Assembly (NCBI GenBank): GCA_035528255.1
Contig: DATKYX010000043.1
Coordinates: 1 to 24,882, forward strand
Reading direction: 5' to 3'
From: Dehalococcoidales bacterium
Lineage (GTDB): Bacteria; Chloroflexota; Dehalococcoidia; Dehalococcoidales; BS750m-G39
Length of the DNA stretch: 24,882 bases
Part shown: in pieces, positions 1 through 21,030 of the stretch
Position numbering within the stretch: position 1 is the first letter of the stretch
Layout of the letters: every line of letters starts with the position of its first letter
Position numbers and translations under genes: made by a program
The notes under the pieces: generated by a model
The model's input: the letters and a program-made list of their open reading frames with translations, nothing else
Told to the model about the DNA's origin: nothing
Database searches by the model: none

Positions 1-7
1 CATCAGC

Positions 8-484
8 ATGCTGGTCGGCAACGGCTTAGTAATATTCTCCATTATAATGCTGTGGCTGTCCCCGGATAAGCTGGCGCTACCCGTCTGGTCAACCTGGCTG
101 GGCTGGGGCCTGCTGCCAGTATCTATCTTTATGCTGATTTACTCCCTGTTCATCAACCTCCCCTTCGGCAAGACCTATGTCGCCACCGGCGTCGGGAACA
201 AACTGGTAACCAGCGGTCTCTATGCCCTCGTCCGCCACCCCTGGGTGCACTGGCTAGTCTTAGCCATGCTGGCTCTAATCCTGGTCTCAAGGTCGAGCCT
301 CATGCTCATCGCCGCCCCGATATGGGTACTGTTCGATATCGCGTTAGTGGCTATTCAGGACAGGTTCTTCTTCGGCAAAATGTTTGACGGCTACGACAAC
401 TACCGGCGCCGGACTCCGATGTTCATCCCCAACCGGCGGAGCATAAACGCCTTCATAAATTCATTAAAACAGAGCGGGAGCTAA
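8..484 (+). CDS. Isoprenylcysteine carboxyl methyltransferase / PEMT-like membrane methyltransferase (possibly 5'-truncated by the window edge)
   Basis: Hydrophobic helices, LVTSGLYALVRHP motif and C-terminal GY..Y...TPMFIP typical of the ICMT/PEMT family; frame is open upstream of the ATG (ATC AGC at 2-7). Confidence 0.8.
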   Translation: MLVGNGLVIFSIIMLWLSPDKLALPVWSTWLGWGLLPVSIFMLIYSLFINLPFGKTYVATGVGNKLVTSGLYALVRHPWVHWLVLAMLALILVSRSSLMLIAAPIWVLFDIALVAIQDRFFFGKMFDGYDNYRRRTPMFIPNRRSINAFINSLKQSGS

Positions 485-507
485 AAATCCCCAAAGGAGG
501 AAAAGAA

Positions 508-2148
508 ATGGCTAACGAGCCGGAACTATTCAAGCAAGGCAAATATGACGATCTCTGGCAGAGGTGCTGCGGGTTTATCGACCTGAGTCTAGAGGAATTC
601 ATGAGGATTCAGCGGCGACTACTCCTGGAGCAGATGGAGCTACTCAAAAAGTGCGAACTGGGCAGAGTAATCTTTGATGGCGCCACGCCCAGCACCCTGG
701 ATGAATTCCGGGAACAGGTGCCGCTGACCACCTACGCCGATTACGCCCCCTACCTGCTAAAGCGGAGGATGGACGTCCTGCCCAGGAAGCCAATCCTGTG
801 GCAATACACCTCGGGCAAGTCGGGGGAATACCCCTACATGTGGGCTCCGGTAACGGCCCGGCAACTCGAAGAGATACAGCCCCTCTTATTCGCCCTCTTA
901 TTCTTCGCCAGCGGCAACCAGAGAAAGGAGATCAGCTTAAGGGAACACGATAATATTTTCTACGGTATGGCGCCGCCCCCCTACGCCACCGGTTCGATGA
1001 CCCGTGCCTTCCCCCACGAACTGTTCAACTTCCTGCCGCCGATAGACGAGGCGGAAGAGATGTCGTTCGAGGACAGGATGAAGAAAGGCCTCGACATGGC
1101 GGTACTCGAGGGGATGGACCTGTGCTTCTCCCTCTCCAGCCTGGCGATAGCCATCGGCGAACGCTTCAGCCAGGGCAACGGCAAAACCAACATCAAACCC
1201 CTTCTCTCCAAGCCCAAGACCCTGTTCAGGCTGGCAAAAGGGATGATTAAGAGCAAGCTGGCCCGTCGTCCCATGCTGCCCAAAGACATATGGTCGCTTA
1301 AAGGGCTGATTACCTTCGGCATCGACGGCGAGGTATATAAGGAAAGGATAAAGGAAATGTGGGGCCGGTATCCCCTGGACTTCCACGGCTGCACCGAAGC
1401 CGTGATGATAGCCACCCAGACCTGGGACCACCAGGGCATGACCTTTATCCCCAACCTCAACTTCTTCGAATTTATCCCCGAAGAAGAATGCCTCAGGTCG
1501 ATGGAAGACCCCCTCTACCAGCCGCATCCCATCCTGCTCGATGAAGTCAAGCCCGGCAATTACGAGCTGGTCATTACCAACTTCCACGGAGGCCCCTTCA
1601 TCAGGTACAGGCTGGGCCACCTGATTAAAATACACTCGCTACGCAACGAAAAGCTCGATATAAACATCCCCCAGATGTCATTCATCTCCCGCGTGGATGA
1701 TATGATTGACATCGCCGGATTTACCCGCCTTTCCGAGAAAACCATCTGGCAGGCTATCCAGAACACCGGGGTAAGCTACACGGGCTGGACGGCGCGCAAG
1801 GAAATCAAGGAAAAGCCGATGCTGCACCTCTACCTGGAACTAAACAAAAACGGCCATCTCACCGGCAAGCAGGTAGCGGCGGCGGTGCACGAGCAACTCA
1901 AAAAGCTGAACACGCCCTACGCCGAAATGGAGGCGTTCATCAACCTGCAACCGCTCAAGGTCACTCTGGTGCCCGAAAACGCCTTCAGTAACTACGCAGA
2001 GGCGAGAAAGAAGGGTGGTGCCAAGGGCAGCCAGGTTCAGATGCCCCACATCAACCCCTCAGATAGCATGATAGACAACCTGCTTAGCGGCTCCCGCCCG
2101 AAGCCGGTCGGCGAGCCGAGCCCGCTGGAAGCTGTCCGCAGCAAGTAG
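508..2148 (+). CDS. GH3 auxin-responsive-promoter family protein (ANL acyl-adenylate/amido synthetase fold)
   Basis: GH3-like N-terminus (EFREQVPLTTYADYAPY), TSGKSG, HGCTE, IPNLNFFEFIP, YELVITN..GG..RYRLG; RBS AGGAGG at 495-500. Confidence 0.85.
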   Translation: MANEPELFKQGKYDDLWQRCCGFIDLSLEEFMRIQRRLLLEQMELLKKCELGRVIFDGATPSTLDEFREQVPLTTYADYAPYLLKRRMDVLPRKPILWQYTSGKSGEYPYMWAPVTARQLEEIQPLLFALLFFASGNQRKEISLREHDNIFYGMAPPPYATGSMTRAFPHELFNFLPPIDEAEEMSFEDRMKKGLDMAVLEGMDLCFSLSSLAIAIGERFSQGNGKTNIKPLLSKPKTLFRLAKGMIKSKLARRPMLPKDIWSLKGLITFGIDGEVYKERIKEMWGRYPLDFHGCTEAVMIATQTWDHQGMTFIPNLNFFEFIPEEECLRSMEDPLYQPHPILLDEVKPGNYELVITNFHGGPFIRYRLGHLIKIHSLRNEKLDINIPQMSFISRVDDMIDIAGFTRLSEKTIWQAIQNTGVSYTGWTARKEIKEKPMLHLYLELNKNGHLTGKQVAAAVHEQLKKLNTPYAEMEAFINLQPLKVTLVPENAFSNYAEARKKGGAKGSQVQMPHINPSDSMIDNLLSGSRPKPVGEPSPLEAVRSK

Positions 2149-2171
2149 AACGGTTATCACATTAGCTCGCT

Positions 2172-2212
2172 CCAGGTCCCCCTCCCCCCACGGAGGGGGA
2201 CCTGGCTTTTTT
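2172..2212 (+). terminator. Intrinsic terminator after the GH3 gene
   Basis: Perfect 14-bp stem CCAGGTCCCCCTCC (2172-2185)/GGAGGGGGACCTGG (2192-2205), 6-nt loop, then CTTTTTT. Confidence 0.9.
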
Positions 2213-2283
2213 AGCGAGGTTAGCCAGGTTTTCCCCAGCTATTACTTTATGTAAAATACAGAGGTGGGACTACTATATTCCTA

Positions 2284-2312
2284 TTGACAACAATTTAGCC
2301 ATAAGACATAAT
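2284..2312 (+). promoter_or_regulatory. Sigma70-type promoter for the GGDEF/HD-GYP gene
   Basis: TTGACA-N17-CATAAT. Confidence 0.7.
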
Positions 2313-2397
2313 GACTATAATTGACTATACTAATAGGCAGCAGCTATTCCTGCTGGGCTTATTAGCTGCTTAAAGTACTGGAGGGGATAGTTAACTA

Positions 2398-4920
2398 ATG
2401 AACGTATGGGCTATAATACCGCTCATCAGTTCTCTGACCTTTACCGCCTTGGTGGTGATGGTCCTGCAACAGGCCAAAAGACGGGTAGATAGAGTATTCG
2501 CTATATTCCTCTCCGTCTCCGCTATCTGGAGCTTCTCCTCCTTCATGCTCACCCGCACCGCCGACACCACCGTCCAGACCTCGGTCTCCCAACCACTAAT
2601 CTTCTGGAATGTAATGGTCATCGCGGCCATACCCGCGGTGGCGGTCTGCTACTACCACTTCGTCAGGGCTTACAACAACAAGCCGGGCGGTATAGGCTTA
2701 TATATCGGCTATGCTCTGGTTGGTATCGTCCTGGCGCTCGGTCTCAGCGGACACATAGTCAAGAGCGCCTACATGGTCGATGGCTTCCTCCATCACGACA
2801 TCGGGCCCTGGGCTTACATCCTGATGGCTATTCTCCTGCCCTTCCTCATTATCACCCTGTTTATGCTGGCCAAAAGGTACCGGAACTCAGCCGACCCCAC
2901 CGACCGTAATAGAACGATATACTTAATAGCCGGCTGGAGCATAAACGTGGTCATAGGCTATATAACCCCACTGACCCCGGCCCTGGCGGGCTTACCCGCC
3001 GACCATATCGGCAACCTGGCTAACGCCCTTATCATCGCCTACGCCATCCAGAGATACCAATTGCTCAACGTCAGGCTGGTGGCGCGGCGGGGGCTGACCT
3101 ACTTAATGGTAATAGCCTGCCTGGTCGTCGTTTACGGCGGCGGCGTATTACTGGGGCAAAGGCTTCTCCCCGACCAGCCGGTTTACCTTATTCTGCTCAT
3201 TGCCTCCGGTTTCGCCCTCCTGCTCATACTGCTGGCCGGCCCCTTGAGGCGCTTCTTTCAAGAGCTGATAGACCGCATCTTCTATCGGGGAACCTACAGA
3301 TACCGTCAGTCGCTACTCACCTTCAGCAAGAAGATGGGTAATATCATTAACATGGACGAGCTGGCTAGCGAAATGCTCCCCGCTGTAACCAAGGCTCTAA
3401 ATATCGAGCACGCCAAATTGCTCTTCGAAGACGTTAACAGCGGCGACTTCACCACCCAGTTCACCTACCCCGAAATAGAAGATGATTCAAACGACAAACT
3501 CAGGCTTAACGTCGACAGCCCGATAATCGCCCTCATGGAAAAAGAAGCCAGACCCATCGAACTGAGGCAGATGGATAACCACCCCGAACTTAAAGGGTTG
3601 TGGCAGACGGAGAGGGAAAAACTGGCCGACATGGAAATCCTGTGCCCGATTAAGACCGGGGGCAGGCTTATCGGTATCCTGGCCCTGGGCAAAAAACAGC
3701 TGGGCAAAATCTACTCCCACGAGGACATAGAGCTTGTGGTCAGTGTTGCCAGCCAGGCCAGCATCCTCATCGAAAACGCCCGCCTCTACGCCCAGGCAAC
3801 GATAAGGGCTAACACCGACGGGCTGACCGGCCTCTACAATCACCGCCACTTCCACGAACGCCTGGAACAGGAAATCGCCCGCGGTTCCCGCTTCGGCAGC
3901 ATGTTCTCCCTGATAATGCTGGATATAGACCTCTTCAAGGCTTACAACGATATCTACGGGCACCTGGCGGGGGATGAGGTGCTGCGCAGAATCGGCAGGT
4001 ATATTGAAGGCTCAATCCGAAACATAGACCTCTCCTTCCGCTACGGCGGCGAGGAATTCGCCATTATCCTGCCCGAAACGCGGCTGGACGCCGCGGCTAA
4101 GGTAGCCGAGCGTATGCGCAAAATGATAGAATCGAAAACAAGCTCCCGCACCATGCCCATAACAGTCAGCATCGGCATCGCCAGCTGGCCCACCGACGGC
4201 GTGATGAAAGAGGAAATAATTGCCCGCGCCGATTCCGCTCTCTATCGGGCGAAACAGGCGGGAAGAAACCGGACCTGCCTATCCTCAGACCTCGACAAGC
4301 CGGAATCGCCCAAAATCAGCGCCGAGCTCGAGGCAAGACCCAGGGCTCTAAGCATCATCTACGCGCTGGCGGCTACGGTTGATGCCAAAGACCACTACAC
4401 CTACGGCCACTCCCGGAAGGTCAGCGACTATTCGGTAGCCATAGCTGAGGCACTCGACTTGCCTCAGGATAGAATCGCCACTATTCGCGCCGCCAGCCTG
4501 CTCCACGATATCGGCAAGGTCGGCATACCCGATTCTATACTCAGCAAAGAAGGCCCCCTGACCGATGAAGAATGGGAGCCGGTAAAAATACACCCCAAGC
4601 TCGGCGTAGAAATACTCAGGCATATTATCGACCTGGTCAACTGCCTCCCCGCCATACTTCACCACCACGAGCACTACGATGGACGTGGCTACCCCTCCGG
4701 TCTAAAAGGGGATTCCATACCCTTGGAAGGCAGAATACTGGCCATAGCCGACGCCTACGACGCCATGACCTCCCCCCGCCCCTACCGTGAGCAGCTAGCA
4801 CCCCAGAGCGCGCTCGAAGAACTGCTGCGCTGTGCCGGAACCCAGTTCGACCCCGAGCTGGTAGAGCTCTTCTGCACGCTTATCGAATCGGCCACTTCGA
4901 GCCGCCTGGAAATAAAATAG
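2398..4920 (+). CDS. Membrane sensor (HisKA_7TM/PrsK-like N-terminus)-GAF-GGDEF diguanylate cyclase-HD-GYP phosphodiesterase
   Basis: About 9 hydrophobic segments; GAF (LCPIKTGGRLIGILALG...ENARLY); DGLTGLYN, DIDLFKAYND, RNID I-site + RYGGEEF; HDIGK, HHEHYDGRGYP, ADAYDAM. Confidence 0.92.
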   Translation: MNVWAIIPLISSLTFTALVVMVLQQAKRRVDRVFAIFLSVSAIWSFSSFMLTRTADTTVQTSVSQPLIFWNVMVIAAIPAVAVCYYHFVRAYNNKPGGIGLYIGYALVGIVLALGLSGHIVKSAYMVDGFLHHDIGPWAYILMAILLPFLIITLFMLAKRYRNSADPTDRNRTIYLIAGWSINVVIGYITPLTPALAGLPADHIGNLANALIIAYAIQRYQLLNVRLVARRGLTYLMVIACLVVVYGGGVLLGQRLLPDQPVYLILLIASGFALLLILLAGPLRRFFQELIDRIFYRGTYRYRQSLLTFSKKMGNIINMDELASEMLPAVTKALNIEHAKLLFEDVNSGDFTTQFTYPEIEDDSNDKLRLNVDSPIIALMEKEARPIELRQMDNHPELKGLWQTEREKLADMEILCPIKTGGRLIGILALGKKQLGKIYSHEDIELVVSVASQASILIENARLYAQATIRANTDGLTGLYNHRHFHERLEQEIARGSRFGSMFSLIMLDIDLFKAYNDIYGHLAGDEVLRRIGRYIEGSIRNIDLSFRYGGEEFAIILPETRLDAAAKVAERMRKMIESKTSSRTMPITVSIGIASWPTDGVMKEEIIARADSALYRAKQAGRNRTCLSSDLDKPESPKISAELEARPRALSIIYALAATVDAKDHYTYGHSRKVSDYSVAIAEALDLPQDRIATIRAASLLHDIGKVGIPDSILSKEGPLTDEEWEPVKIHPKLGVEILRHIIDLVNCLPAILHHHEHYDGRGYPSGLKGDSIPLEGRILAIADAYDAMTSPRPYREQLAPQSALEELLRCAGTQFDPELVELFCTLIESATSSRLEIK

Positions 4921-4951
4921 CCCCGCGGCTTCATTACCCTTCAAACGCTAT

Positions 4952-5644
4952 TTAGGATACCGCCTTATAGGGACAAGTTTTCCTCAGGCTGCAACGCCCG
5001 CAGACCTCGGCCTGTGTCCACCGGGTCATCTTGGGGCCGGTGCCGACAACCATAGAGGTCGACTTGCGGGGAATCAACACTCCGGAAGAGGACAAGCTCA
5101 CGCCTATTTCCTTGGCCGGCGCCAGCTCCAGCAGATTCCACTGCTCGGTCATGGGGAAACCGGGCATGCCCGGGTTAACCGGGCTGCTTATCTCATAGCC
5201 CCGCGAGGCAACCTCGGCGGCAATAAGCCTCAGGGCTTCGGGAATCAGCATATCCACGGCGGCGGTGCCGATACCGTCCAGCACCACCCCGCGCAGGGCT
5301 TTCCCGCCTTTACTATATTCGGTCACCCGCTCTTCCAGCCTGGGGCCGATGGTGGCGATGAGGACGATAAACTCCCTGGCCTCAGGAAAGGTCGCGGATA
5401 GCAAAGGCCCCTCTATCGCCTTATCCCCCTCCAGCGATATCCGGTCGGGGTGTATGGCGGCTATCGGGTAGCATTCATAAGCGACCGTCGGCTCCAGGAG
5501 GCCATCCTTCCCGACTTCAGCCAGCAGCTCGGTAATTACCTTCTTTATCTCCGTCCTTACCCTGGCTCTACCCCCCAACCCCTGGCGGCGCAGCACTTCA
5601 TCGCTGTAGTCCAGGTTCAGGGGAATATCGCGGATTACCGGCAT
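4952..5644 (-). CDS. Stand-alone vitamin B12-dependent methionine synthase activation (AdoMet reactivation) domain protein with C-terminal Cys cluster
   Basis: IATIGPRLEE, LDGIGTAAV, IGVSLSSSGVLIPRKSTSMVVG match the MetH activation-domain family; CGRCSLRKTC tail. Confidence 0.8.
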   Translation of the reverse strand: MPVIRDIPLNLDYSDEVLRRQGLGGRARVRTEIKKVITELLAEVGKDGLLEPTVAYECYPIAAIHPDRISLEGDKAIEGPLLSATFPEAREFIVLIATIGPRLEERVTEYSKGGKALRGVVLDGIGTAAVDMLIPEALRLIAAEVASRGYEISSPVNPGMPGFPMTEQWNLLELAPAKEIGVSLSSSGVLIPRKSTSMVVGTGPKMTRWTQAEVCGRCSLRKTCPYKAVS

Positions 5645-5685
5645 ATCCTTCTCCCTCGGAGGCCTTTAGCCACGGCGAAAGCCTC

Positions 5686-5725
5686 AAAAAAAGCGAACCC
5701 CGAGACAAAAGGCTTGCCCCGGGGT
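5686..5725 (-). terminator. Terminator-like hairpin between the UroD-fold gene and the activation-domain gene
   Basis: Minus strand ACCCCGGGGCAA-loop-TTGTCTCGGGGT (about 12 bp with G-U pairs), then TCGC and T7. Confidence 0.6.
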
Positions 5726-5748
5726 ACCACTCTTAATCACCTTAGCGT

Positions 5749-7107
5749 CTATTTATAGACTTTACTGCCGTATTCCTTGCCAAACTCGGCCATAGCCTTG
5801 ACGTTCTCCGCCTTGGCCTGGTCGAAGAAGGCGCCGTTGCTCAGGACGTAGCCGCCGCCCTTAGCGCAGGTATCGATGAGCTCCTTGACTTTGTCCTTCA
5901 CCTGCTGGACTGTACCCAAAGCCAATATATCGGATTGCACGTTGCCCATTATACAAGCCACGGAACCGATGGTTTTCTTGGCCTTAGCCATATCGCTATT
6001 GTCTATCATCCAGAAAGTCTTACCTTTGGGTAAGTCTCGGAAGGTCTCCAGACGCGTGGTCCAACTCCCCTCAGCCGCCGGGAAGGGCACGCAGCCCTCC
6101 TCGATTAAGCCCATCATGACCTTCCTGAAGGTAGGCCAGTAGAACTTCTGGAACTGCGCTTCGGAGAGGAAGCCGTCAGCGCCCTTATGCAGGGGCATAA
6201 AGACCAGAGGCTTGCCGTTCATCTGGGCGGCGCCGACCCCCATCTTAATCATCAGCGGGACCAACCTGTCCATGGCTTCGAGGAGCTTGTCGGGGCAGCG
6301 GTACATATCCATCATTATCCCCCTGGTGCCCCTGAGGGTATCGCCGAGCACGTCGAAGGGTGCCTTGGTATAGCCAGCGACGATGCCGGCGTAGCCCATA
6401 GAGATGGTCTCCATATTCCACTGCATGACAGGACCCAGCCACTTCATAACCTCGTTGCCCGCGTCCATAAGGGCCTTCAGGGAAGCCTGGACGGGCGGCA
6501 CGCCGAAGGGTATGAAGTTATAGCCCAGGCCGTACATTTCGAGGATGCCGGTGAAAGCCGGCAACGCCTGGAAGGGGCCCAGGGCGCCAAAGACGCGCGG
6601 AAAGTAGCTATGAAGAAAATAACCGGTGGGGTCCTGAATCAGGTCGTCGTATTCCTCGGGCTTCATGTATTCGCCTTCGTTAGCCTGGTACGACTGCTCC
6701 TTAGCCACCCCGTGGCCGGGCCAGGAATAGAGCTTGTAGTCCAGAGCTTCGAAGAACTTGCCCGGGCCGGGCATGTCCACGCCGAGGTGTCCGTCAGGCT
6801 CAAATTCGACGAGGAATTTCTTATAGGCCGCATAGAGCTTATCGTAGTCGTACATAGCGTCATGGGGGGTTATGCCGGCATTATAAACAGGGAAAAAGCT
6901 GGGAAGCACAAAGACCGGCACCCTGTCCGGCAATTTTTTCATCTGGATGGCGTCTTTTATCCTGGTTATTCGCTCTTTATACGCCTTTTCAGTCTGGGGG
7001 CTCTGGAACTTAAGGTCATTGCCCTCGGGGTCTTTCGGTGCCATCCACCGGGCAAACATTACATCTTGTTTTTCGTCCGATGTCATATCTATCCATTCTT
7101 TAGCCAT
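5749..7107 (-). CDS. Uroporphyrinogen decarboxylase (UroD/MtaA/CmuA/MtvB-like) fold protein, probable corrinoid-dependent methyltransferase
   Basis: DRVPV, APFDVLGDTLRG...DMYRCPDKLLEA, FMPLHKG..GF.S..QF.KFYWP, GGGYVLS; start reassigned to ATG 7107 (MAKEWID) because GGAGGT lies 7 nt upstream. Confidence 0.85.
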   Translation of the reverse strand: MAKEWIDMTSDEKQDVMFARWMAPKDPEGNDLKFQSPQTEKAYKERITRIKDAIQMKKLPDRVPVFVLPSFFPVYNAGITPHDAMYDYDKLYAAYKKFLVEFEPDGHLGVDMPGPGKFFEALDYKLYSWPGHGVAKEQSYQANEGEYMKPEEYDDLIQDPTGYFLHSYFPRVFGALGPFQALPAFTGILEMYGLGYNFIPFGVPPVQASLKALMDAGNEVMKWLGPVMQWNMETISMGYAGIVAGYTKAPFDVLGDTLRGTRGIMMDMYRCPDKLLEAMDRLVPLMIKMGVGAAQMNGKPLVFMPLHKGADGFLSEAQFQKFYWPTFRKVMMGLIEEGCVPFPAAEGSWTTRLETFRDLPKGKTFWMIDNSDMAKAKKTIGSVACIMGNVQSDILALGTVQQVKDKVKELIDTCAKGGGYVLSNGAFFDQAKAENVKAMAEFGKEYGSKVYK

Positions 7108-7159
7108 TTTTATTACCTCCTGTATCTTTTCTATCGAAAATCTTAGTTTACAGGGGTTA

Positions 7160-7789
7160 TCAACCGGCAATCCACTTCTGAGCCAGGGTTACGCCGGCCA
7201 TCGCGTCTTTACCGTAGGCGTCAGCGCCGGTATACTTCCTCACCTCTTCACTCATCTGGCCGCCGCCGATCATAATTTTGACCTTATCCCTCAGGCCGGC
7301 GCCGGCTATAGCTTCGATAGTCTGCTTCATGGAATCGAAAGCCAGGGTAAGAAAGCCGCTCAAGCCGACGACGGGAGCCCCGGTCTCCTTAATCTTATCA
7401 ACGAACTTCTGCACCGGCACATCAACGCCCAGGTCGTGCACCTCAAAGCCGCTAACATCGAGCATAAAAACGACGATATCCTTACCGATGTCGTGGATAT
7501 CGCCGGCAACGGTACCGAAAACGACCTTGCCCAGCTTCTTGGGGGCTGCCGCCTGAGTCAGCTTGGGCTTAACAATCTCGGATACCGCCTTCAAGATTTC
7601 ACCAGAATAAACCAGGTCGGGAACGAAATACTGGCTACTGGCGAAGCGCTTGCCCACGATTTCCATGCCCTTGCGGGCGTCCTCCAGAATCTTAAGGGCA
7701 TCATCCCCCTTCGCCAACCTATCCTTAACAACTTTAAGAGCCTCTTGTTCCTTCAAATCAGCTAACAGGTTAGCTAAATCTCCAGCCAT
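7160..7789 (-). CDS. Corrinoid (cobalamin-binding) methyl-carrier protein, MtaC/MtbC/MtvC-like
   Basis: Cap domain plus GDIHDIGK (DxHxxG), GLSGFLT, IMIGGG, GADAYGKDA; RBS AGGAGGT. Confidence 0.93.
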   Translation of the reverse strand: MAGDLANLLADLKEQEALKVVKDRLAKGDDALKILEDARKGMEIVGKRFASSQYFVPDLVYSGEILKAVSEIVKPKLTQAAAPKKLGKVVFGTVAGDIHDIGKDIVVFMLDVSGFEVHDLGVDVPVQKFVDKIKETGAPVVGLSGFLTLAFDSMKQTIEAIAGAGLRDKVKIMIGGGQMSEEVRKYTGADAYGKDAMAGVTLAQKWIAG

Positions 7790-8094
7790 TTTCTTTTTAC
7801 CTCCTTAAAGAATTATTTAGCTCTTCCGCCGAACAGCCTTACCTTAATATATAAACCCCATTTTCACCTCCCCGAATCTAGCCCGTCCAGAGAAATTATG
7901 TGCCCTGGCTGGACAAGTTCAGGGCATCTCACGGTCTTTTAGGAAACATATCCGATTTTCTTTCCACCCTACTCGTGGCTAAACTAGCGTTCAGTAGGAA
8001 AATATCGCCCATACTACCAAACCCTTTCAGGATATAACCAACGCCATAAAGATAACAACCCCACCCCTCCCCACGCCGCGTATTAAAATCGGGC

Positions 8095-8799
8095 TTAAAG
8101 CCCCAGATAGGCTTTCTTGACCATCTCCTCTTGCAGAAGATGCTCGCAGTCTCCCTCGAGGACAATATGCCCGTTCTCAAGCACGTATGCCCGGTCAGCT
8201 ATCTCCAGGGTGCGTGGAACATTCTGCTCGATAAGCAGTATGGTAATCCCCCGCTCGCGCAGGGCCTTAATGACATCGAAAACCTCGGCCATAATTATCG
8301 GCGCCAGCCCGTAGGAAGGCTCATCGAAGATGCATAGCTTCGGCATCGACATCAGACCCCTCCCCATCGCCAGCATCTGCTGCTCGCCACCGCTCAACGT
8401 CCGGCCCAACTGCCCCGCCCTCTCCTTCAATATGGGGAAAGACTCATAAACCTGCTCAAAAGTCTCATTCCGGTGCTTCCAGGCTCTGGGGGTATAAGCC
8501 CCCATCTCCAGGTTCTCATGCACCGACATGTCGGCAAAGAGCCTTCTCCCCTCAGGCACATGAGAAATACCCAGTCCCACGATTTTGTGAGGCGGCAAGT
8601 CGTCTATCCTCTGGCCCATGAACTCGATAGTACCCGAAGCCGGTTGCAGCAGACCCGTTATAGTATTAAGCAGCGTGGTCTTGCCCGCGCCGTTAGCTCC
8701 AACCAGAGCCACTATCTCGGTCTCCTCGATGTTTATAGAAATATCCCATAAGGCCTGGATCTTGCCATAAGAGGTATTGACGTTACAAACTTCCAGCAT
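8095..8799 (-). CDS. livF: Branched-chain amino acid (HAAT) ABC transporter ATP-binding subunit
   Basis: GANGAGKTT, HVPEGRRLF, LSGGEQQMLAMGR, DEPS, LLIEQN. Confidence 0.92.
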   Translation of the reverse strand: MLEVCNVNTSYGKIQALWDISINIEETEIVALVGANGAGKTTLLNTITGLLQPASGTIEFMGQRIDDLPPHKIVGLGISHVPEGRRLFADMSVHENLEMGAYTPRAWKHRNETFEQVYESFPILKERAGQLGRTLSGGEQQMLAMGRGLMSMPKLCIFDEPSYGLAPIIMAEVFDVIKALRERGITILLIEQNVPRTLEIADRAYVLENGHIVLEGDCEHLLQEEMVKKAYLGL

Positions 8800-8803
8800 A
8801 AAC

Positions 8804-9523
8804 CTACTCTCCTAAGTATACCTCAATAACCTTCTTGCTGGTAGCAATTTCCTGGGGCGTTCCGTCGGCAATCTTCTCGCCGTGATGGAGAACCATAATT
8901 CGGTCGCAAACGCCCATAATCGCCTTCATAACATGCTCGATCATAAAAACGGTAAACCCTCTATCCCGAATCCTTTTCACCAGCTCCATAGCCTCGGCGG
9001 TCTCGGTGGGCGTTAGTCCCGCCATCACCTCGTCGAGCAACAACATATCCGCCTTGGTGGCTAAAGCCCGGGCTATCTCGACCCGCTTCTGGTTAACCAG
9101 GGTCAAACCCCCGGCCGGGATATTTTTAGGCACGGTAAATCCGACAAAATCCAATAACTCCCCGGCTTCCTTGGTAGCCTGCGCTGTTGACATAGCCTTC
9201 GGCCCCCCGAACAGCGCGCCCAACGACACATTCTCTATAGCCGGCACACCGCCGAAAATCTTAACCTCCTGAAAGGTTCGGGCCATCCCCATCCGGCATA
9301 TTTTATACGGTTTTAGGCCGCTGATTTTTTTACCCTTAAACTTTATTACTCCCGACTTAGGGGTAAACGCCCCCGATATCAGGTTAAAAAGCGTTGTCTT
9401 ACCCGCCCCGTTAGGTCCGATCAGGCCGAAAATCTCGCCCTGCTCGACGGAAAAATCTACTTCCGATACCGCCGCCAGCCCGCCAAAGTACTTGGTAACC
9501 TTTTCACCTTCAAGTATTCGCAT
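8804..9523 (-). CDS. livG: HAAT ABC transporter ATP-binding subunit
   Basis: GPNGAGKTTLFN, GMARTFQ, LLLDE..AGL, IEHVM...CDRI.VLHHG. Confidence 0.92.
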   Translation of the reverse strand: MRILEGEKVTKYFGGLAAVSEVDFSVEQGEIFGLIGPNGAGKTTLFNLISGAFTPKSGVIKFKGKKISGLKPYKICRMGMARTFQEVKIFGGVPAIENVSLGALFGGPKAMSTAQATKEAGELLDFVGFTVPKNIPAGGLTLVNQKRVEIARALATKADMLLLDEVMAGLTPTETAEAMELVKRIRDRGFTVFMIEHVMKAIMGVCDRIMVLHHGEKIADGTPQEIATSKKVIEVYLGE

Positions 9524-10487
9524 TCTGTTCCACCGAACCTCCTTTCCTCCACTTCCGTACCAGTCCTACCAGTTTTTGTATCACCCCCATCAGTCCGTTA
9601 GGCATGAATACTATAGCGCCTATTAATACGGCACCGAAGATGAGCATATAGTAGTTTTTCAAATCACCCGTAGTTAACACTTCCTGGATATAGGTAAAGA
9701 GCACCGCGCCGATAACCGGCCCGTAAATATTCCCCATCCCGCCGAAAATAGCCATCAGCACCGGAGTGAAAGATATCATCAGGTTAAAAGCGACGCCCGG
9801 GTCTACATAAGTCCATTTCGTCGCCATGACAACGCCTGCGGCACCCATAAATATTGCGCTCACGGCAAAAGTAAGAATCTTAACCATGGTAACGTTGACG
9901 CCGGTATGCGCCGCCGCTTCTTCGTTCTGACCGATGCTTCGCAGCGCCAGCCCGAACTTCGACCTTCTCATAAAGTAAGCTGCAATCATTGTGACGACGA
10001 AGATGCCCAGCAGATAATAGTAAATGGTATCGTTACTCTGAAGCACAACGAACCTTCCGCGGAGACCTTCGACAGTGATTTCGTAGTAGTAAATCAACTC
10101 CTTGAAAAGCAGCACGAGACCGAAGGTAAACATGGCGAAATAAATGCCGCGCAGCCTTAAGGTTATGGCGCCGAAGATGAAGGCGAGAACAAAGCTGGCA
10201 GCGCCTCCGATTAAGACCACGAAGATTAACGGCATTGATTCTCCCAGTAGCGCCGCCGCATAAATGCCAACCCCGAAAAAGGCAGACGACGCCAGCGAGA
10301 TATAGCCGGTGGCGCCGGAGAAAATCGTCCAGGCAACCGCCAGGATAATATACATCAGAAAATAGCTAAGGCGCGTAACCCAATATGCCGAGCCGTATTG
10401 CGGGAAAAAGCTCAGTAAAATTACGCCTACCAGCGGTATTCCCCAGATTATGGCATTCTTTTTCCAGTTTATCTTGCTAAAGTTCAT
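9510..10487 (-). CDS. livM: HAAT ABC transporter permease
   Basis: GYISL...AFFGVGIY, RLRGIYFAMFT, FG.ALRSIGQNEEAA...GVN, GGMGNIYGPVIG. Confidence 0.9.
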   Translation of the reverse strand: MNFSKINWKKNAIIWGIPLVGVILLSFFPQYGSAYWVTRLSYFLMYIILAVAWTIFSGATGYISLASSAFFGVGIYAAALLGESMPLIFVVLIGGAASFVLAFIFGAITLRLRGIYFAMFTFGLVLLFKELIYYYEITVEGLRGRFVVLQSNDTIYYYLLGIFVVTMIAAYFMRRSKFGLALRSIGQNEEAAAHTGVNVTMVKILTFAVSAIFMGAAGVVMATKWTYVDPGVAFNLMISFTPVLMAIFGGMGNIYGPVIGAVLFTYIQEVLTTGDLKNYYMLIFGAVLIGAIVFMPNGLMGVIQKLVGLVRKWRKGGSVEQNANT

Positions 10488-10490
10488 TTC

Positions 10491-11354
10491 TTATTTCCCA
10501 AAGAGGCCTTTCGGCCTAACCAGCAATAAAATGACAAAGATTACATAGTAAGAAGCCACGGATAAACCCGCGTCCCAGGATGTGACGGCGGTACCAATAA
10601 CGCCCAGGATAAAACCCCCGATAAAACTGCCGGGAATGCTGCCGAGCCCGCCCAGCGTGATGACGACGATGGCAATGACGGTATAGCCCAGGCCCATCGT
10701 CGTAGATATCGGGTAGCAAACGCTGATAAGCGCACCGGCGACACCCGCCATGGCGGCACCGAAGCCAAAACACAATGCCAGTGTGTTATTAATATTGACC
10801 CCCATCAACCCGGCGGTAGTGGGGTCCTGGGCAGCCGCCCGGATAGCCTTGCCGGTACGGGCTCTGGCTAAATAGAGGTAGAAAGCGGCGCCGACCGCGA
10901 TGGCGAACGCCGCGGCGACCAGCCGGCTATCGTTAAATAACGCTCCGCCGAGAGAGACAGTCCCGGGCAAATAACTGTAACTTTGTGGTGTGGTGCCCCA
11001 GATGAGGCGCCCGATATTTTGAACGATAAAATAAAGCCCGAAGGCAGCCAGCAAGGCGTTGCTTTCAAAAACCCCCGGGTTGGATGCTTTTAACCTGATG
11101 GTTGTGAAAATCGTCCGGTAAATGATAAATCCCACAATAAACATCAGCGGGGCGATTATCACAACGGTAAGCAGCGGGTCAACGCCATTTTGCTGCAGCA
11201 CGAAGGTAAGGAAAGCGCCTATCATTAAAAACTCGCCGTGGGCGATGTTCAATACCTTGGCGACGCCATATTGCAGGCTAAGCCCCATAGATACTAACGA
11301 ATAAATACCGCCGATTAAAAGGCCGCCAATGAAGATGCTAAGAAAATGTTCCAT
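10491..11354 (-). CDS. livH: HAAT ABC transporter permease
   Basis: GL..GGIYSL.S.GL.L.YG..KVLNIAHGEF, GKAIRAAAQD...AGLMGVN, GGLGSIPG. Confidence 0.92.
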   Translation of the reverse strand: MEHFLSIFIGGLLIGGIYSLVSMGLSLQYGVAKVLNIAHGEFLMIGAFLTFVLQQNGVDPLLTVVIIAPLMFIVGFIIYRTIFTTIRLKASNPGVFESNALLAAFGLYFIVQNIGRLIWGTTPQSYSYLPGTVSLGGALFNDSRLVAAAFAIAVGAAFYLYLARARTGKAIRAAAQDPTTAGLMGVNINNTLALCFGFGAAMAGVAGALISVCYPISTTMGLGYTVIAIVVITLGGLGSIPGSFIGGFILGVIGTAVTSWDAGLSVASYYVIFVILLLVRPKGLFGK

Positions 11355-11541
11355 TATATTATCTCAAATATCTCAAAGACATTCGCTAGATATTATATAC
11401 TTTATACTGGATTTTACACAAGCAGACTGGCTGAAGGTCATACAAGGTATCTTTCTAGAGGATACCGGTTTTGACCCCCGGTATGACCCCCAGACAGCCT
11501 GCAAACTCTATTTTTTTGCTATTTAGCTCTCCGACTAAGGT

Positions 11542-12837
11542 TTACTCTGTCGGCCACGGCAGCTTCGGATAGATGGGGTCTGCGGTGCGGTGTTCGTCGT
11601 TGTCGACGACTTCAAAGATGCCGCTCTGCCACTGCCCGATTTGTCCGGAGTAGCATGCCTGCGGCAACAGGCCGCCGCCATTTTCACCCTGAATATCCCA
11701 ATACATGTCTCCTATTATTGTGTCGAAATGGGCGGTCCTGTAAACTTCCAGGATTGCCTCGGTATCAAGGGTGGCAGCCTCTTCGATGGCCTGCTGGAGG
11801 TACTGGAGACTGGCATAGTATACATTAGCACCCCACCAGTCCTGATTGCCCATGCCAACCAGGCCCGTCAGCTTATCCGCGAACTCAGCGAGTGCGGGTG
11901 AGCTATTCCTGTTCCACGCGCCCTCACCCATAACACCTTCCAGAGCGGGGCCGAACACGAGATTGAAGAACTCGAAGTTACAGCCCGGGCCAATCAAGAC
12001 GCAATCCGGGTTGAACTCCAGCGCCATGGCAGTCTGCATGAAGAGCATATTCTGGTTCGGATAGCAGAAGCAGCAGAAGATATCGGGGTCCAAAGCCTTG
12101 GCTTCCTCGATTATCGGGTTCATATCCGAGATAGTAACCGGTATGCTCGTGGAGCCCACGACCGTGATGCCATTCAGGGCGAATTCGCCTTGGGCGGCAG
12201 CGTTATATTCGGCGCCGTGCAGGTCGGCCATGTACATGATGTATGCCGTCTTAGCCCCTGCCTCTACCATGAGTTCGGTGAACACGGGTATCTGGAAATG
12301 GTTGGCGTAGTTCAAAACGGAGACGACGTAAGGCATGTCGGGCATCACCGGCTCGAGGGTGGTGGCGCCGCCTTCGCCGCAGAGCATGAGTGTCTCGTAT
12401 TTATTGGCGATAGGCGCCGCGGAAAAGAGCATGGCGGTGCCGGTCGGCCCGAAGAGGAAGTCGACATTGTCTTCCGTGATCAGCTTCTCGAGATTCCTGG
12501 TGCATGCGGCCGGGTCGCTGGCATCATCGTACTCTATTATTCTGACCTGAAGCATCTTGCCAGCCACATTGATGCCGCCGGCGGCGTTGACTTCTTCAGC
12601 CCACATCTTATAGAGAGGGGCGAAGCCATAGTCCTGGAAACCGGCCTGCGGGCCGGTGATATCCCGGGAAGCGCCGATGACGATTTCATCTTGTTCTGGC
12701 GGAGTTGGTCCGGTTGGTTCGGTGGGTCCGGTTGGTTCGGTCGGTCCGGTTGGCTCGGTTTCTTTTTCACAAGCAACCAACAAGCCGCTGAACAGCAACG
12801 TCACCACCAACAATACCAATAATATTTTCTTGCTCAC
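11542..12837 (-). CDS. HAAT ABC substrate-binding lipoprotein (LivK-like, type I periplasmic-binding fold)
   Basis: GTG start after AAAGGAG; lipobox LLVAC; Pro/Thr linker; EVNAAGGINVAGK, YDDASDP, VDFLFGP. Confidence 0.88.
   Translation of the reverse strand: MSKKILLVLLVVTLLFSGLLVACEKETEPTGPTEPTGPTEPTGPTPPEQDEIVIGASRDITGPQAGFQDYGFAPLYKMWAEEVNAAGGINVAGKMLQVRIIEYDDASDPAACTRNLEKLITEDNVDFLFGPTGTAMLFSAAPIANKYETLMLCGEGGATTLEPVMPDMPYVVSVLNYANHFQIPVFTELMVEAGAKTAYIMYMADLHGAEYNAAAQGEFALNGITVVGSTSIPVTISDMNPIIEEAKALDPDIFCCFCYPNQNMLFMQTAMALEFNPDCVLIGPGCNFEFFNLVFGPALEGVMGEGAWNRNSSPALAEFADKLTGLVGMGNQDWWGANVYYASLQYLQQAIEEAATLDTEAILEVYRTAHFDTIIGDMYWDIQGENGGGLLPQACYSGQIGQWQSGIFEVVDNDEHRTADPIYPKLPWPTE
12707..12760. 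repeat. 3 x 18-bp in-frame tandem repeat encoding (T/P)EPTGP units in the lipoprotein linker
   Basis: GGTCCGGTTGGTTCGGTG / GGTCCGGTTGGTTCGGTC / GGTCCGGTTGGCTCGGTT. Confidence 0.95.
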
Positions 12838-13173: not shown

Positions 13174-13250
13174 TGGTGGGCGGTACCGGGCTCGAACCAG
13201 TGACCTCTGCGATGTCAACGCAGTGCTCTAACCAACTGAGCTAACCGCCC
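13174..13250 (-). tRNA. tRNA-Val (GAC), encoded CCA
   Basis: GGGCGGTTAGCTCAGTTGGTTAGAGCA...CTGCG-TTGACAT-CGCAG...GGTTCGAGCCC...CCGCCC-ACCA; 77-nt cloverleaf. Confidence 0.97.
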
Positions 13251-20915: not shown

Positions 20916-20933
20916 AAAAACAGCTATCGACTC

Positions 20934-21030
20934 TTAAGGGGCGGTAAGCTAAATAAATCATAAACCCTTAAAAATCTAGGTCGCTTGGATCGGATATGAC
21001 CGAGACGGCAGAAATAGATACCGTATTTAT
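20934..21030 (+). ncRNA. Structured cis-regulatory leader, probable pan RNA motif
   Basis: Bulged hairpin GTCGCTTGGATC-GGATAT-GACCGAGACGGC (20980-21009) directly upstream of a terminator and pan genes; family assignment rests on context and recollection, not a search. Confidence 0.55.

Follow-up and report, generated by a model that had tools for sequence, protein, structure and literature searches.

A conserved GH3 ligase and membrane sensor module suggests an undescribed signal maker and receptor pair in Dehalococcoidia

Background

The only characterised bacterial GH3 enzyme is OlsH of Singulisphaera acidiphila, described in 2025, which makes N-acyl-ornithine from a free fatty acid and ATP (PMC12493201). 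The operon of OlsH also encodes OlsG, a lipid N-methyltransferase, and OlsI, an O-acyltransferase, and the product of the three is a trimethyl-ornithine lipid (PMC12493201; PMC12971839). The published orders with OlsH homologues exclude Dehalococcoidales (PMC12971839). Here we describe a GH3 gene from that order, which lies between the genes for a membrane methyltransferase and a seven-transmembrane (7TM) sensor on a 24,882-nucleotide stretch of DNA (DATKYX010000043.1 of assembly GCA_035528255.1), hereafter the window. It comprises contig C43 in full, starting at the first base, and derives from an 809-kb metagenome-assembled genome (MAG) that is 68% complete. Conservation of the locus among relatives suggests an undescribed "signal maker plus receptor" pair in Dehalococcoidia.

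Dehalococcoidia, a class that grows poorly in pure culture, count among their members the main bioremediation agents for chlorinated solvents. The class includes the organohalide-respiring genera Dehalococcoides and Dehalogenimonas. We know of no cell-cell or autocrine chemical signalling system that has been defined in it.

Signal-making gene(s) adjoin the gene of a polytopic sensor kinase in LuxM/LuxN of Vibrio harveyi, which uses AI-1, and in ComQXPA of Bacillus subtilis. LuxN, the acyl-homoserine-lactone receptor kinase of Vibrio, and ComP both bind lipophilic signals. In plants, the GH3 enzyme JAR1 makes jasmonoyl-isoleucine (JA-Ile), an active receptor ligand, and GH3.5 and GH3.6 make indole-3-acetyl-aspartate (IAA-Asp). 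A methylation-capped N-acyl amino acid of the NAME type is an open-chain analogue of the acyl-homoserine lactones, and NAMEs are the compound class that would be expected of a GH3 enzyme acting with a carboxyl methyltransferase, a link that is hypothetical. To our knowledge, NAMEs have not been reported from Chloroflexota. They occur in Roseovarius, where the synthase genes are unknown (PMC11580390).

The window locus resembles the OlsH system in the size of its GH3 protein (546 aa, against 526 aa for OlsH) and in an adjoining putative lipid-type methyltransferase, but differs from it in that GH3 is coupled to a dedicated membrane sensor and has His at two nucleotide-site residues. With LuxM/LuxN and ComQXPA it shares a polytopic sensor beside the putative signal-making genes, and, among reviewed proteins, the window input has its best fold matches in LuxN and ComP when predicted structures are compared. 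Unlike LuxM/LuxI or ComQ, the putative synthase here would be a GH3 ligase with or without a methyltransferase. Unlike LuxN and ComP, the window sensor has a GAF domain after its membrane part and a predicted output in cyclic di-GMP (c-di-GMP) turnover. The plant GH3 enzymes have the same fold and family as the window protein at 16-18% identity, whereas the latter has non-canonical motifs, a putative membrane association via the methyltransferase, and a gene that adjoins a putative receptor gene. Finally, the sensor shares with bifunctional GGDEF-HD-GYP enzymes with membrane inputs an intact GGEEF, RxxD I-site, HD and GYP, but it differs from other such sensors in that its input has a dedicated enzyme partner and that its relatives swap in kinase outputs.

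Results and discussion

Three open reading frames (ORFs), all on the plus strand, encode the methyltransferase (2/8..484), GH3 (508..2148) and the sensor (2398..4920). The features assigned to them are given below; AF2 denotes AlphaFold2 models and pLDDT their predicted local distance difference test.

2..484, plus strand: PEMT/ICMT-like integral-membrane S-adenosylmethionine (SAM) methyltransferase, 3' part (160 codons), with an RHP motif at 233-241 (Pfam, conserved motifs)
508..2148, plus strand: GH3-family (ANL-superfamily) acyl-acid amido-synthetase homologue, 546 aa (Pfam, PDB profile, AF2 model)
808-843, plus strand: P-loop-like TSGKSGEYPYMW (GH3 motif)
1381-1398, plus strand: FHGCTE (GH3 motif)
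1606-1620, plus strand: YRLGH (GH3 motif)
2398..4920, plus strand: sensor, 840 aa, 7TM-GAF-GGDEF-HD-GYP (Pfam)
2398..3252, plus strand: membrane part of the sensor input, HisKA_7TM (Pfam; AF2 model pLDDT 78)
3349..3777, plus strand: cytoplasmic GAF of the sensor input (Pfam GAF_2, GAF_3 and GAF; Foldseek matches to PDB GAF domains)
3808..4272, plus strand: GGDEF diguanylate-cyclase domain with RNID I-site and GGEEF at 4018-4059 (Pfam E 6e-48)
4378..4860, plus strand: HD-GYP c-di-GMP phosphodiesterase domain with HDIGK at 4504-4518 and HHHEHYDGRGYP at 4660-4695 (Pfam HD_5/HD E 3e-40)

The GH3 and sensor genes are linked and inherited in pairs

Neighbouring genes were mapped with tblastn, hidden Markov models and clustering in 80 species-representative loci, nearly all from Dehalococcoidia MAGs, with GH3 proteins 52-92% identical. 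A 7TM-GAF module lies within 3.5 kb on the same strand in 55 of the 59 loci with at least 3.5 kb of downstream sequence (93%), and in 35 of these 55 it is within 700 bp of GH3. Chance adjacency, estimated at ~1-2% from 1-3 sensor copies per 1-3 Mb genome, was rejected because of this excess and because the linkage persists at 36% GH3 identity. The initial annotation had proposed that GH3 homologues be scored for such neighbours, and both the 7TM sensor and the methyltransferase (directly upstream in 47 of the 69 loci having upstream sequence) proved to be enriched. In 251 genomes sampled across the class, a set that overlaps with the 80 loci, GH3 is present in 60 and the input module in 78. 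Both are present in 59, GH3 only in 1, the sensor only in 19 and neither in 172; the sensor-only count is an upper bound, as some matches span the GAF region alone. A sensor lies no more than 6 kb away on the same contig for 52 of 59 near-full-length GH3 copies in this sample, and at least two of the seven unlinked copies are at contig ends.

Linkage extends to distant homologues. A sensor kinase gene comes after each of the GH3 genes whose proteins have 46%, 44%, 38% and 36% identity, and the kinases of two loci outside the profile-building set (L094 and L091) align with the profile of the input module along its whole length (E 3e-90 and 2e-40, respectively). The two genes overlap by 4 bp in several lineages. 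Single genomes may hold two or three GH3-sensor pairs, and these are old duplicates in which GH3 copies are 34-57% and input modules 23-39% identical. The closest relative of each GH3 paralogue in another genome is paired with the closest relative of its sensor, and GH3 and input-module distances are correlated (r=0.84). Both gene linkage and paired inheritance of the kind associated with cognate synthase and receptor genes were thus found. In locus L108 (G014:C2:622778-627464, the same region as L063), from a genome of two contigs that is 100% complete, GH3 is split into ORFs of 410 and 142 aa and the sensor into three fragments, and the two genes appear to be decaying together. Other arrangements include three tandem full-length GH3 genes (561, 556 and 553 aa) followed by one 1009-aa GAF-GAF-GGDEF-HD-GYP sensor (L074:8286-16723), a solo sensor kinase and regulator that adjoin an HTH_45 gene and lack the GH3-methyltransferase cassette (L113:1778-5058), and a locus with HTH_45, small protein, methyltransferase and GH3 genes in a 90%-complete genome in which no sensor was found (L109:7918-11026).

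Within Chloroflexota, the subfamily was found in 17 of 201 genomes, all Dehalococcoidia, and in 0 of ~179 genomes outside the class. About one quarter of the class genomes carry the module, as do 12 of 13 genomes in the order of the window. Module-bearing single-contig genomes of 1.4-1.9 Mb in this order are probably Dehalococcoides and Dehalogenimonas. No published account of a GH3-sensor module was found, including in searches on Dehalococcoides with GH3 or auxin-responsive terms.

The sensor input is constant and its outputs are interchangeable

HisKA_7TM (PF16927) was matched at 38.6 bits in the Pfam scan and at 43.2 bits in the genome scan (cut-off 28.6), and GAF_2 at 33.3 bits (cut-off 28.6). 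The RNID-x5-GGEEF, HDIGK and HHHEHYDGRGYP motifs are all intact, and the GGDEF and HD-GYP catalytic motifs are retained by 46 of 46 full-length sensor orthologues, which rules out degenerate GGDEF or HD-GYP domains. The 7TM sensor with GGDEF and HD-GYP outputs that the initial annotation described was therefore confirmed in its domains and catalytic motifs, although the GAF domain between 7TM and GGDEF had gone unmentioned. Among relatives, the input is joined to the following outputs.

GGDEF-HD-GYP, ~835-850 aa
GAF-GAF-GGDEF-HD-GYP, ~1010 aa
HisKA_3-HATPase, ~690-710 aa, followed by a REC-GerE (NarL-type) regulator
GAF-GAF-HisKA-HATPase-REC (hybrid kinase)

The relatives with a HisKA_3 kinase and NarL/GerE-type regulator presumably belong to the ComP-ComA class. 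Output type switches at least six times along the GH3 tree, and the input is constant. Since the output is swappable, the input module, rather than c-di-GMP, is tied to GH3. With at least four output architectures, c-di-GMP was rejected as the defining output. The initial annotation had envisaged a synthase-receptor logic that uses c-di-GMP, but many relatives have this input module joined to histidine kinases instead. Judged from gene content, the invariant core is the GH3 ligase plus the 7TM-GAF input, with the methyltransferase usually attached and the output interchangeable.

The model of the sensor input has ~8 long helices, a beta-hairpin at residues 121-135 and the GAF domain. Foldseek searches of the PDB with this model gave matches limited to the GAF domain. 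With an exhaustive structural aligner, sensor residues 1-233 (window 2398-3096) fit the seven-helix bundles of class A G-protein-coupled receptors (GPCRs) at Z 16-17 and a root-mean-square deviation (rmsd) of ~3.5 Å over ~218 residues, and the tied top matches include lipid receptors such as S1PR, GPR6, GPR3 and CB2. Among reviewed proteins, the best fold matches extended over the entire input, with LuxN first (E 2e-11, residues 3-464) and ComP next, and ethylene receptors matched chiefly the last helices and GAF of the model. Membership of ComP in Pfam HisKA_7TM was unsupported, as a control scan of the family matched only proteins of Thermus, Haloferax and Methanosarcina. Assignment of the sensor to PrsK (PEP-CTERM histidine kinase, TIGR02916) was also rejected, with 56.5 bits against a cut-off of 300 and a match to residues 262-462 only.

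The window GH3 belongs to a variant clade

All three GH3 Pfam domains (N, M and C) exceed the gathering cut-off, and a PDB profile search retrieved plant GH3 proteins at E values of about 1e-22 to 3e-22. The AF2 model (pLDDT 89.4; predicted template-modelling score, pTM, 0.86) has as its best structural matches plant GH3 enzymes, at a template-modelling (TM) score of ~0.6, and PaaK-type ligases. Relatives number in the thousands, with identities of 66-99% for the closest 120. When 1.8 billion cluster representatives were searched exhaustively, only 1051 matched at E <= 0.001, from which we consider the subfamily to be compact.

The window protein departs from the canonical nucleotide-binding motifs (S/T)SG...K, Y-x-x-T-E and YRxGD. 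It keeps TSG and TE, but has His293 in place of the canonical Tyr, His371 in place of Asp and Met in place of the P-loop Lys. A private defect or sequencing error was rejected as the source of the two His residues, since they define a 33-member clade. The GH3 proteins of Dehalococcoidia form two clades, one canonical (n=40; Tyr293, Asp371, P-loop Lys) and one variant (n=33; His293, His371, P-loop Arg, Met or Leu), to which the window belongs. Among paired copies, all loci linked to a ketosynthase (KS) fall in the canonical clade, and the variant clade holds 6 of 7 ThiF-linked and 6 of 7 B12-radical-SAM-linked loci. The variant clade takes in Dehalococcoides-like and Dehalogenimonas-like genomes, and the sensor is retained by both clades. 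Selection clearly acts on the variant clade. The concerted change of three nucleotide-site residues suggests that it has an altered cofactor chemistry.

The methyltransferase is coupled to GH3

The methyltransferase gene is cut by the contig start. Full-length relatives have 186-201 aa, which puts the loss from the window ORF at ~36 N-terminal residues and makes the ATG at base 8, where the initial annotation began, an internal codon. A public DNA contig from soil metagenome run X1 that covers window 1-1163 runs 204 nt past the first base, so the missing 5' end exists in public reads. The truncated copy scores 24.2 bits for PEMT (cut-off 25) and 22.1 bits for ICMT (cut-off 24), whereas full-length relatives exceed the cut-offs with 31.7 and 26.2 bits, respectively. 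PEMT (PF04191) is matched by 16 of 18 relatives, and the motifs GLYALVRHP and FG..Y..YR..TP..PN are conserved in the alignment.

At least seven lineages (P0123, P0110, P0161, P0167, L082, L056 and L059) have the methyltransferase naturally fused to the GH3 N-terminus, and one of these (P0167) has eight members from independent sources. Some loci that lack the PEMT-like gene have an unrelated class I methyltransferase in its place, a substitution that suggests methylation as a conserved chemical step of the module.

Transcription signals and expression

The 23-bp gap between the methyltransferase and GH3 genes (485-507) contains an AGGAGG ribosome-binding site. Two non-coding features were assigned downstream:

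2172..2215, plus strand: intrinsic-terminator-like hairpin (2172-2205; 14 pairs, 11 G-C) and T-run, closing the methyltransferase-GH3 unit
2284..2312, plus strand: sigma-70-like promoter candidate TTGACA-17-CATAAT, 11/12 by consensus match only, 86 nt 5' of the sensor start codon

The ORF coordinates and the hairpin agree with the initial annotation, which gave two co-oriented enzyme genes 23 bp apart and closed by one terminator. Its separate sensor promoter also has a counterpart in the 11/12 site at 2284-2312, a consensus match only; as promoter-like sites are no more frequent in the window than in shuffled sequence (3 found, 3.2 expected), the case for the candidate lies solely in where it sits and how well it matches.

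Within GH3, contigs assembled from soil metatranscriptomes match the window with 0-1 mismatches. One such contig (430-630) spans the methyltransferase/GH3 junction and another stops at 2176, which coincides with the terminator. Contigs of these RNA libraries are weakly consistent with co-transcription of the methyltransferase and GH3, since DNA carry-over could explain them. No riboswitch or other known RNA was found in window 1-5000.

The wider cluster

The initial annotation placed three genes in one module. Their linkage held, but the conserved unit in relatives is larger, with an HTH_45 regulator and a small protein further upstream in ~49 of 62 loci. The small protein has ~120-140 aa in these loci and 100-160 aa in an alignment, and lies 5' of the methyltransferase gene (e.g., L009:8782-9219). 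It has the N-terminus KRMLIxPAELVKKIDENRGDxSQAEFI, which by eye looks like a ribbon-helix-helix (RHH), and a conserved FLDFFVSYGLELGK helix; it gave no Pfam match and an empty PDB profile search. Their place upstream falls beyond the contig of the window, and searches of its 68%-complete genome revealed neither the HTH_45 nor the RHH-like gene.

Lineage-specific genes lie between GH3 and the sensor in other loci and encode a FabF-like KS (11 loci), a B12-binding radical-SAM protein (9 loci) or a ThiF-like protein (10 loci). On gene content, insertions of this kind give the picture of a small biosynthetic cluster that is diversifying.

Type IV pilus genes (PilM/N, PilB/T-type ATPase, pilins and prepilin peptidase) flank the module in 24-25 of 80 loci, as does a TackOD1-domain protein; examples are L002:1-7219, L005, L006 and L007. 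The gene for a PilB/T-type ATPase directly follows the sensor in L006. The c-di-GMP output may act on the pilus.

Interpretation and alternatives

A functional link among the three genes, with a synthase-receptor logic, is supported by their conserved neighbourhoods. We propose that the GH3 enzyme and the methyltransferase make a lipophilic N-acyl-amino-acid-type ligand that is read by the adjacent sensor, a reading to which we give about even confidence. The three genes would then be one conserved functional module. GH3 would activate a lipophilic carboxylic acid, most likely a fatty or modified acyl acid, and join it to an amino acid, and the membrane methyltransferase would methylate the conjugate within the membrane. 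The resulting N-acyl-amino-acid-type compound would be the ligand of the neighbouring 7TM-GAF sensor. In the window, the sensor would respond to ligand binding by making or degrading c-di-GMP; in relatives, this input would drive a HisKA_3 kinase and NarL-type regulator, or a hybrid kinase. An N-acyl amino acid is the most reasonable product class because OlsH makes N-acyl-ornithine. We infer the substrate, the product, the binding of that product by the sensor, and the action of the signal between or within cells. A synthase-receptor pair had already been put forward in the initial annotation, and that idea gains from the linkage, the fusions, the paired paralogues and the LuxN-like fold; the c-di-GMP output proved not to be the conserved feature.

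Several observations weigh against this proposal. Co-regulation without ligand binding would also account for adjacency and co-inheritance, and linkage counts are not independent events because relatives share ancestry; deep divergence, output swapping, paired paralogues and joint decay or loss provide evidence that is independent of simple synteny. About one third of loci lack the methyltransferase. One genome has GH3 and methyltransferase genes and no sensor (G011), and another has a fused GH3 without a sensor (G431). Canonical ATP-dependent adenylation is not assured, as three nucleotide-site residues are replaced in the clade of the window. The GPCR-like match may reflect just a common helical arrangement and is given no functional weight here. 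The LuxN match is a lead and no proof, since both structures are predicted and superpose with a TM score of 0.42 and an rmsd of 11 Å.

The OlsH precedent that points to an N-acyl amino acid also leads to a different reading, in which GH3 and the methyltransferase make a structural lyso-aminolipid and the 7TM-GAF sensor monitors membrane composition or stress and adjusts synthesis or the envelope. The sole characterised bacterial GH3 is encoded beside OlsG, which N-methylates lipids (PMC12493201; PMC12971839), the window methyltransferase has its best Pfam match in the phospholipid methyltransferase family PEMT, and the enzyme is integral to the membrane and fused to GH3 in several lineages. 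FabF-like KS genes adjoin GH3 in 11 loci, and presence of the module in 12 of 13 genomes of the order is what a housekeeping lipid function might give. We nevertheless consider an aminolipid pathway rather unlikely: no OlsI-type alpha/beta-hydrolase or other O-acyltransferase was found among the conserved neighbours (annotated clusters occurring in at least 10 of 80 loci), only about one quarter of class genomes carry the module, and paired paralogues, three tandem GH3 genes with one sensor, variable tailoring and frequent solo sensors would better suit diversifying signal-receptor pairs. If, on the other hand, the genes were co-regulated and chemically unconnected, the sensor would read an unrelated external or metabolic cue, and GH3 and the methyltransferase would belong to its regulon or act on another target such as pili or a surface protein. 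The linkage would then stem from common control by the upstream HTH_45 and RHH-like regulators. The two small DNA-binding proteins (HTH_45 and RHH-like) conserved upstream in ~49 of 62 loci, the pilus genes that flank the module in 24-25 of 80 and the terminator that parts GH3 from the sensor in the window would all agree with this arrangement. It is an improbable one, as pilus genes are lineage-specific whereas the GH3-sensor linkage holds to 36% GH3 identity and in other contexts, the input module remains beside GH3 even where a different output implies a different regulon, paralogous pairs remain matched, and some lineages have a 4-bp overlap of the two genes.

The enzymes might instead inactivate or take up a signal, with GH3 conjugating and the methyltransferase capping an exogenous acid so that a sensed signal is removed or converted. 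Plant GH3 enzymes both activate (JA-Ile) and inactivate (IAA-Asp) hormones (PMC12493201), and the linkage evidence cited for signal synthesis applies here as well. The KS, B12-radical-SAM and ThiF neighbours suggest biosynthesis over detoxification, however, and we regard inactivation as very improbable.

If signal synthesis by GH3 and the methyltransferase is correct, it would provide a new enzymatic route to bacterial signals, a bacterial counterpart of plant JA-Ile logic, and would suggest which class of ligands may be bound by HisKA_7TM, an uncharacterised input domain. A wider proposal, which we put forward only tentatively as a possibility, is that the modules constitute an unrecognised family of chemical communication systems in Dehalococcoides and Dehalogenimonas, with LuxN-like 7TM-GAF receptors and c-di-GMP or two-component outputs. 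Cultured strains appear to hold orthologous modules, which makes the hypothesis directly testable.

Other features of the window

Downstream of the sensor, the minus strand of window 4952-12837 encodes a 230-aa protein faintly like the MetH C-terminus, a URO-D/MtaA-like methyltransferase, a corrinoid protein and a Liv-type ATP-binding cassette (ABC) transporter. Synteny of these genes is limited to the closest relatives (L002 and L005), which places them outside the conserved module. An Rfam scan at the gathering threshold identified a tRNA at 13177-13250 on the minus strand and a pan motif at 20922-21012 on the plus strand (37.1 bits, cut-off 36.2).

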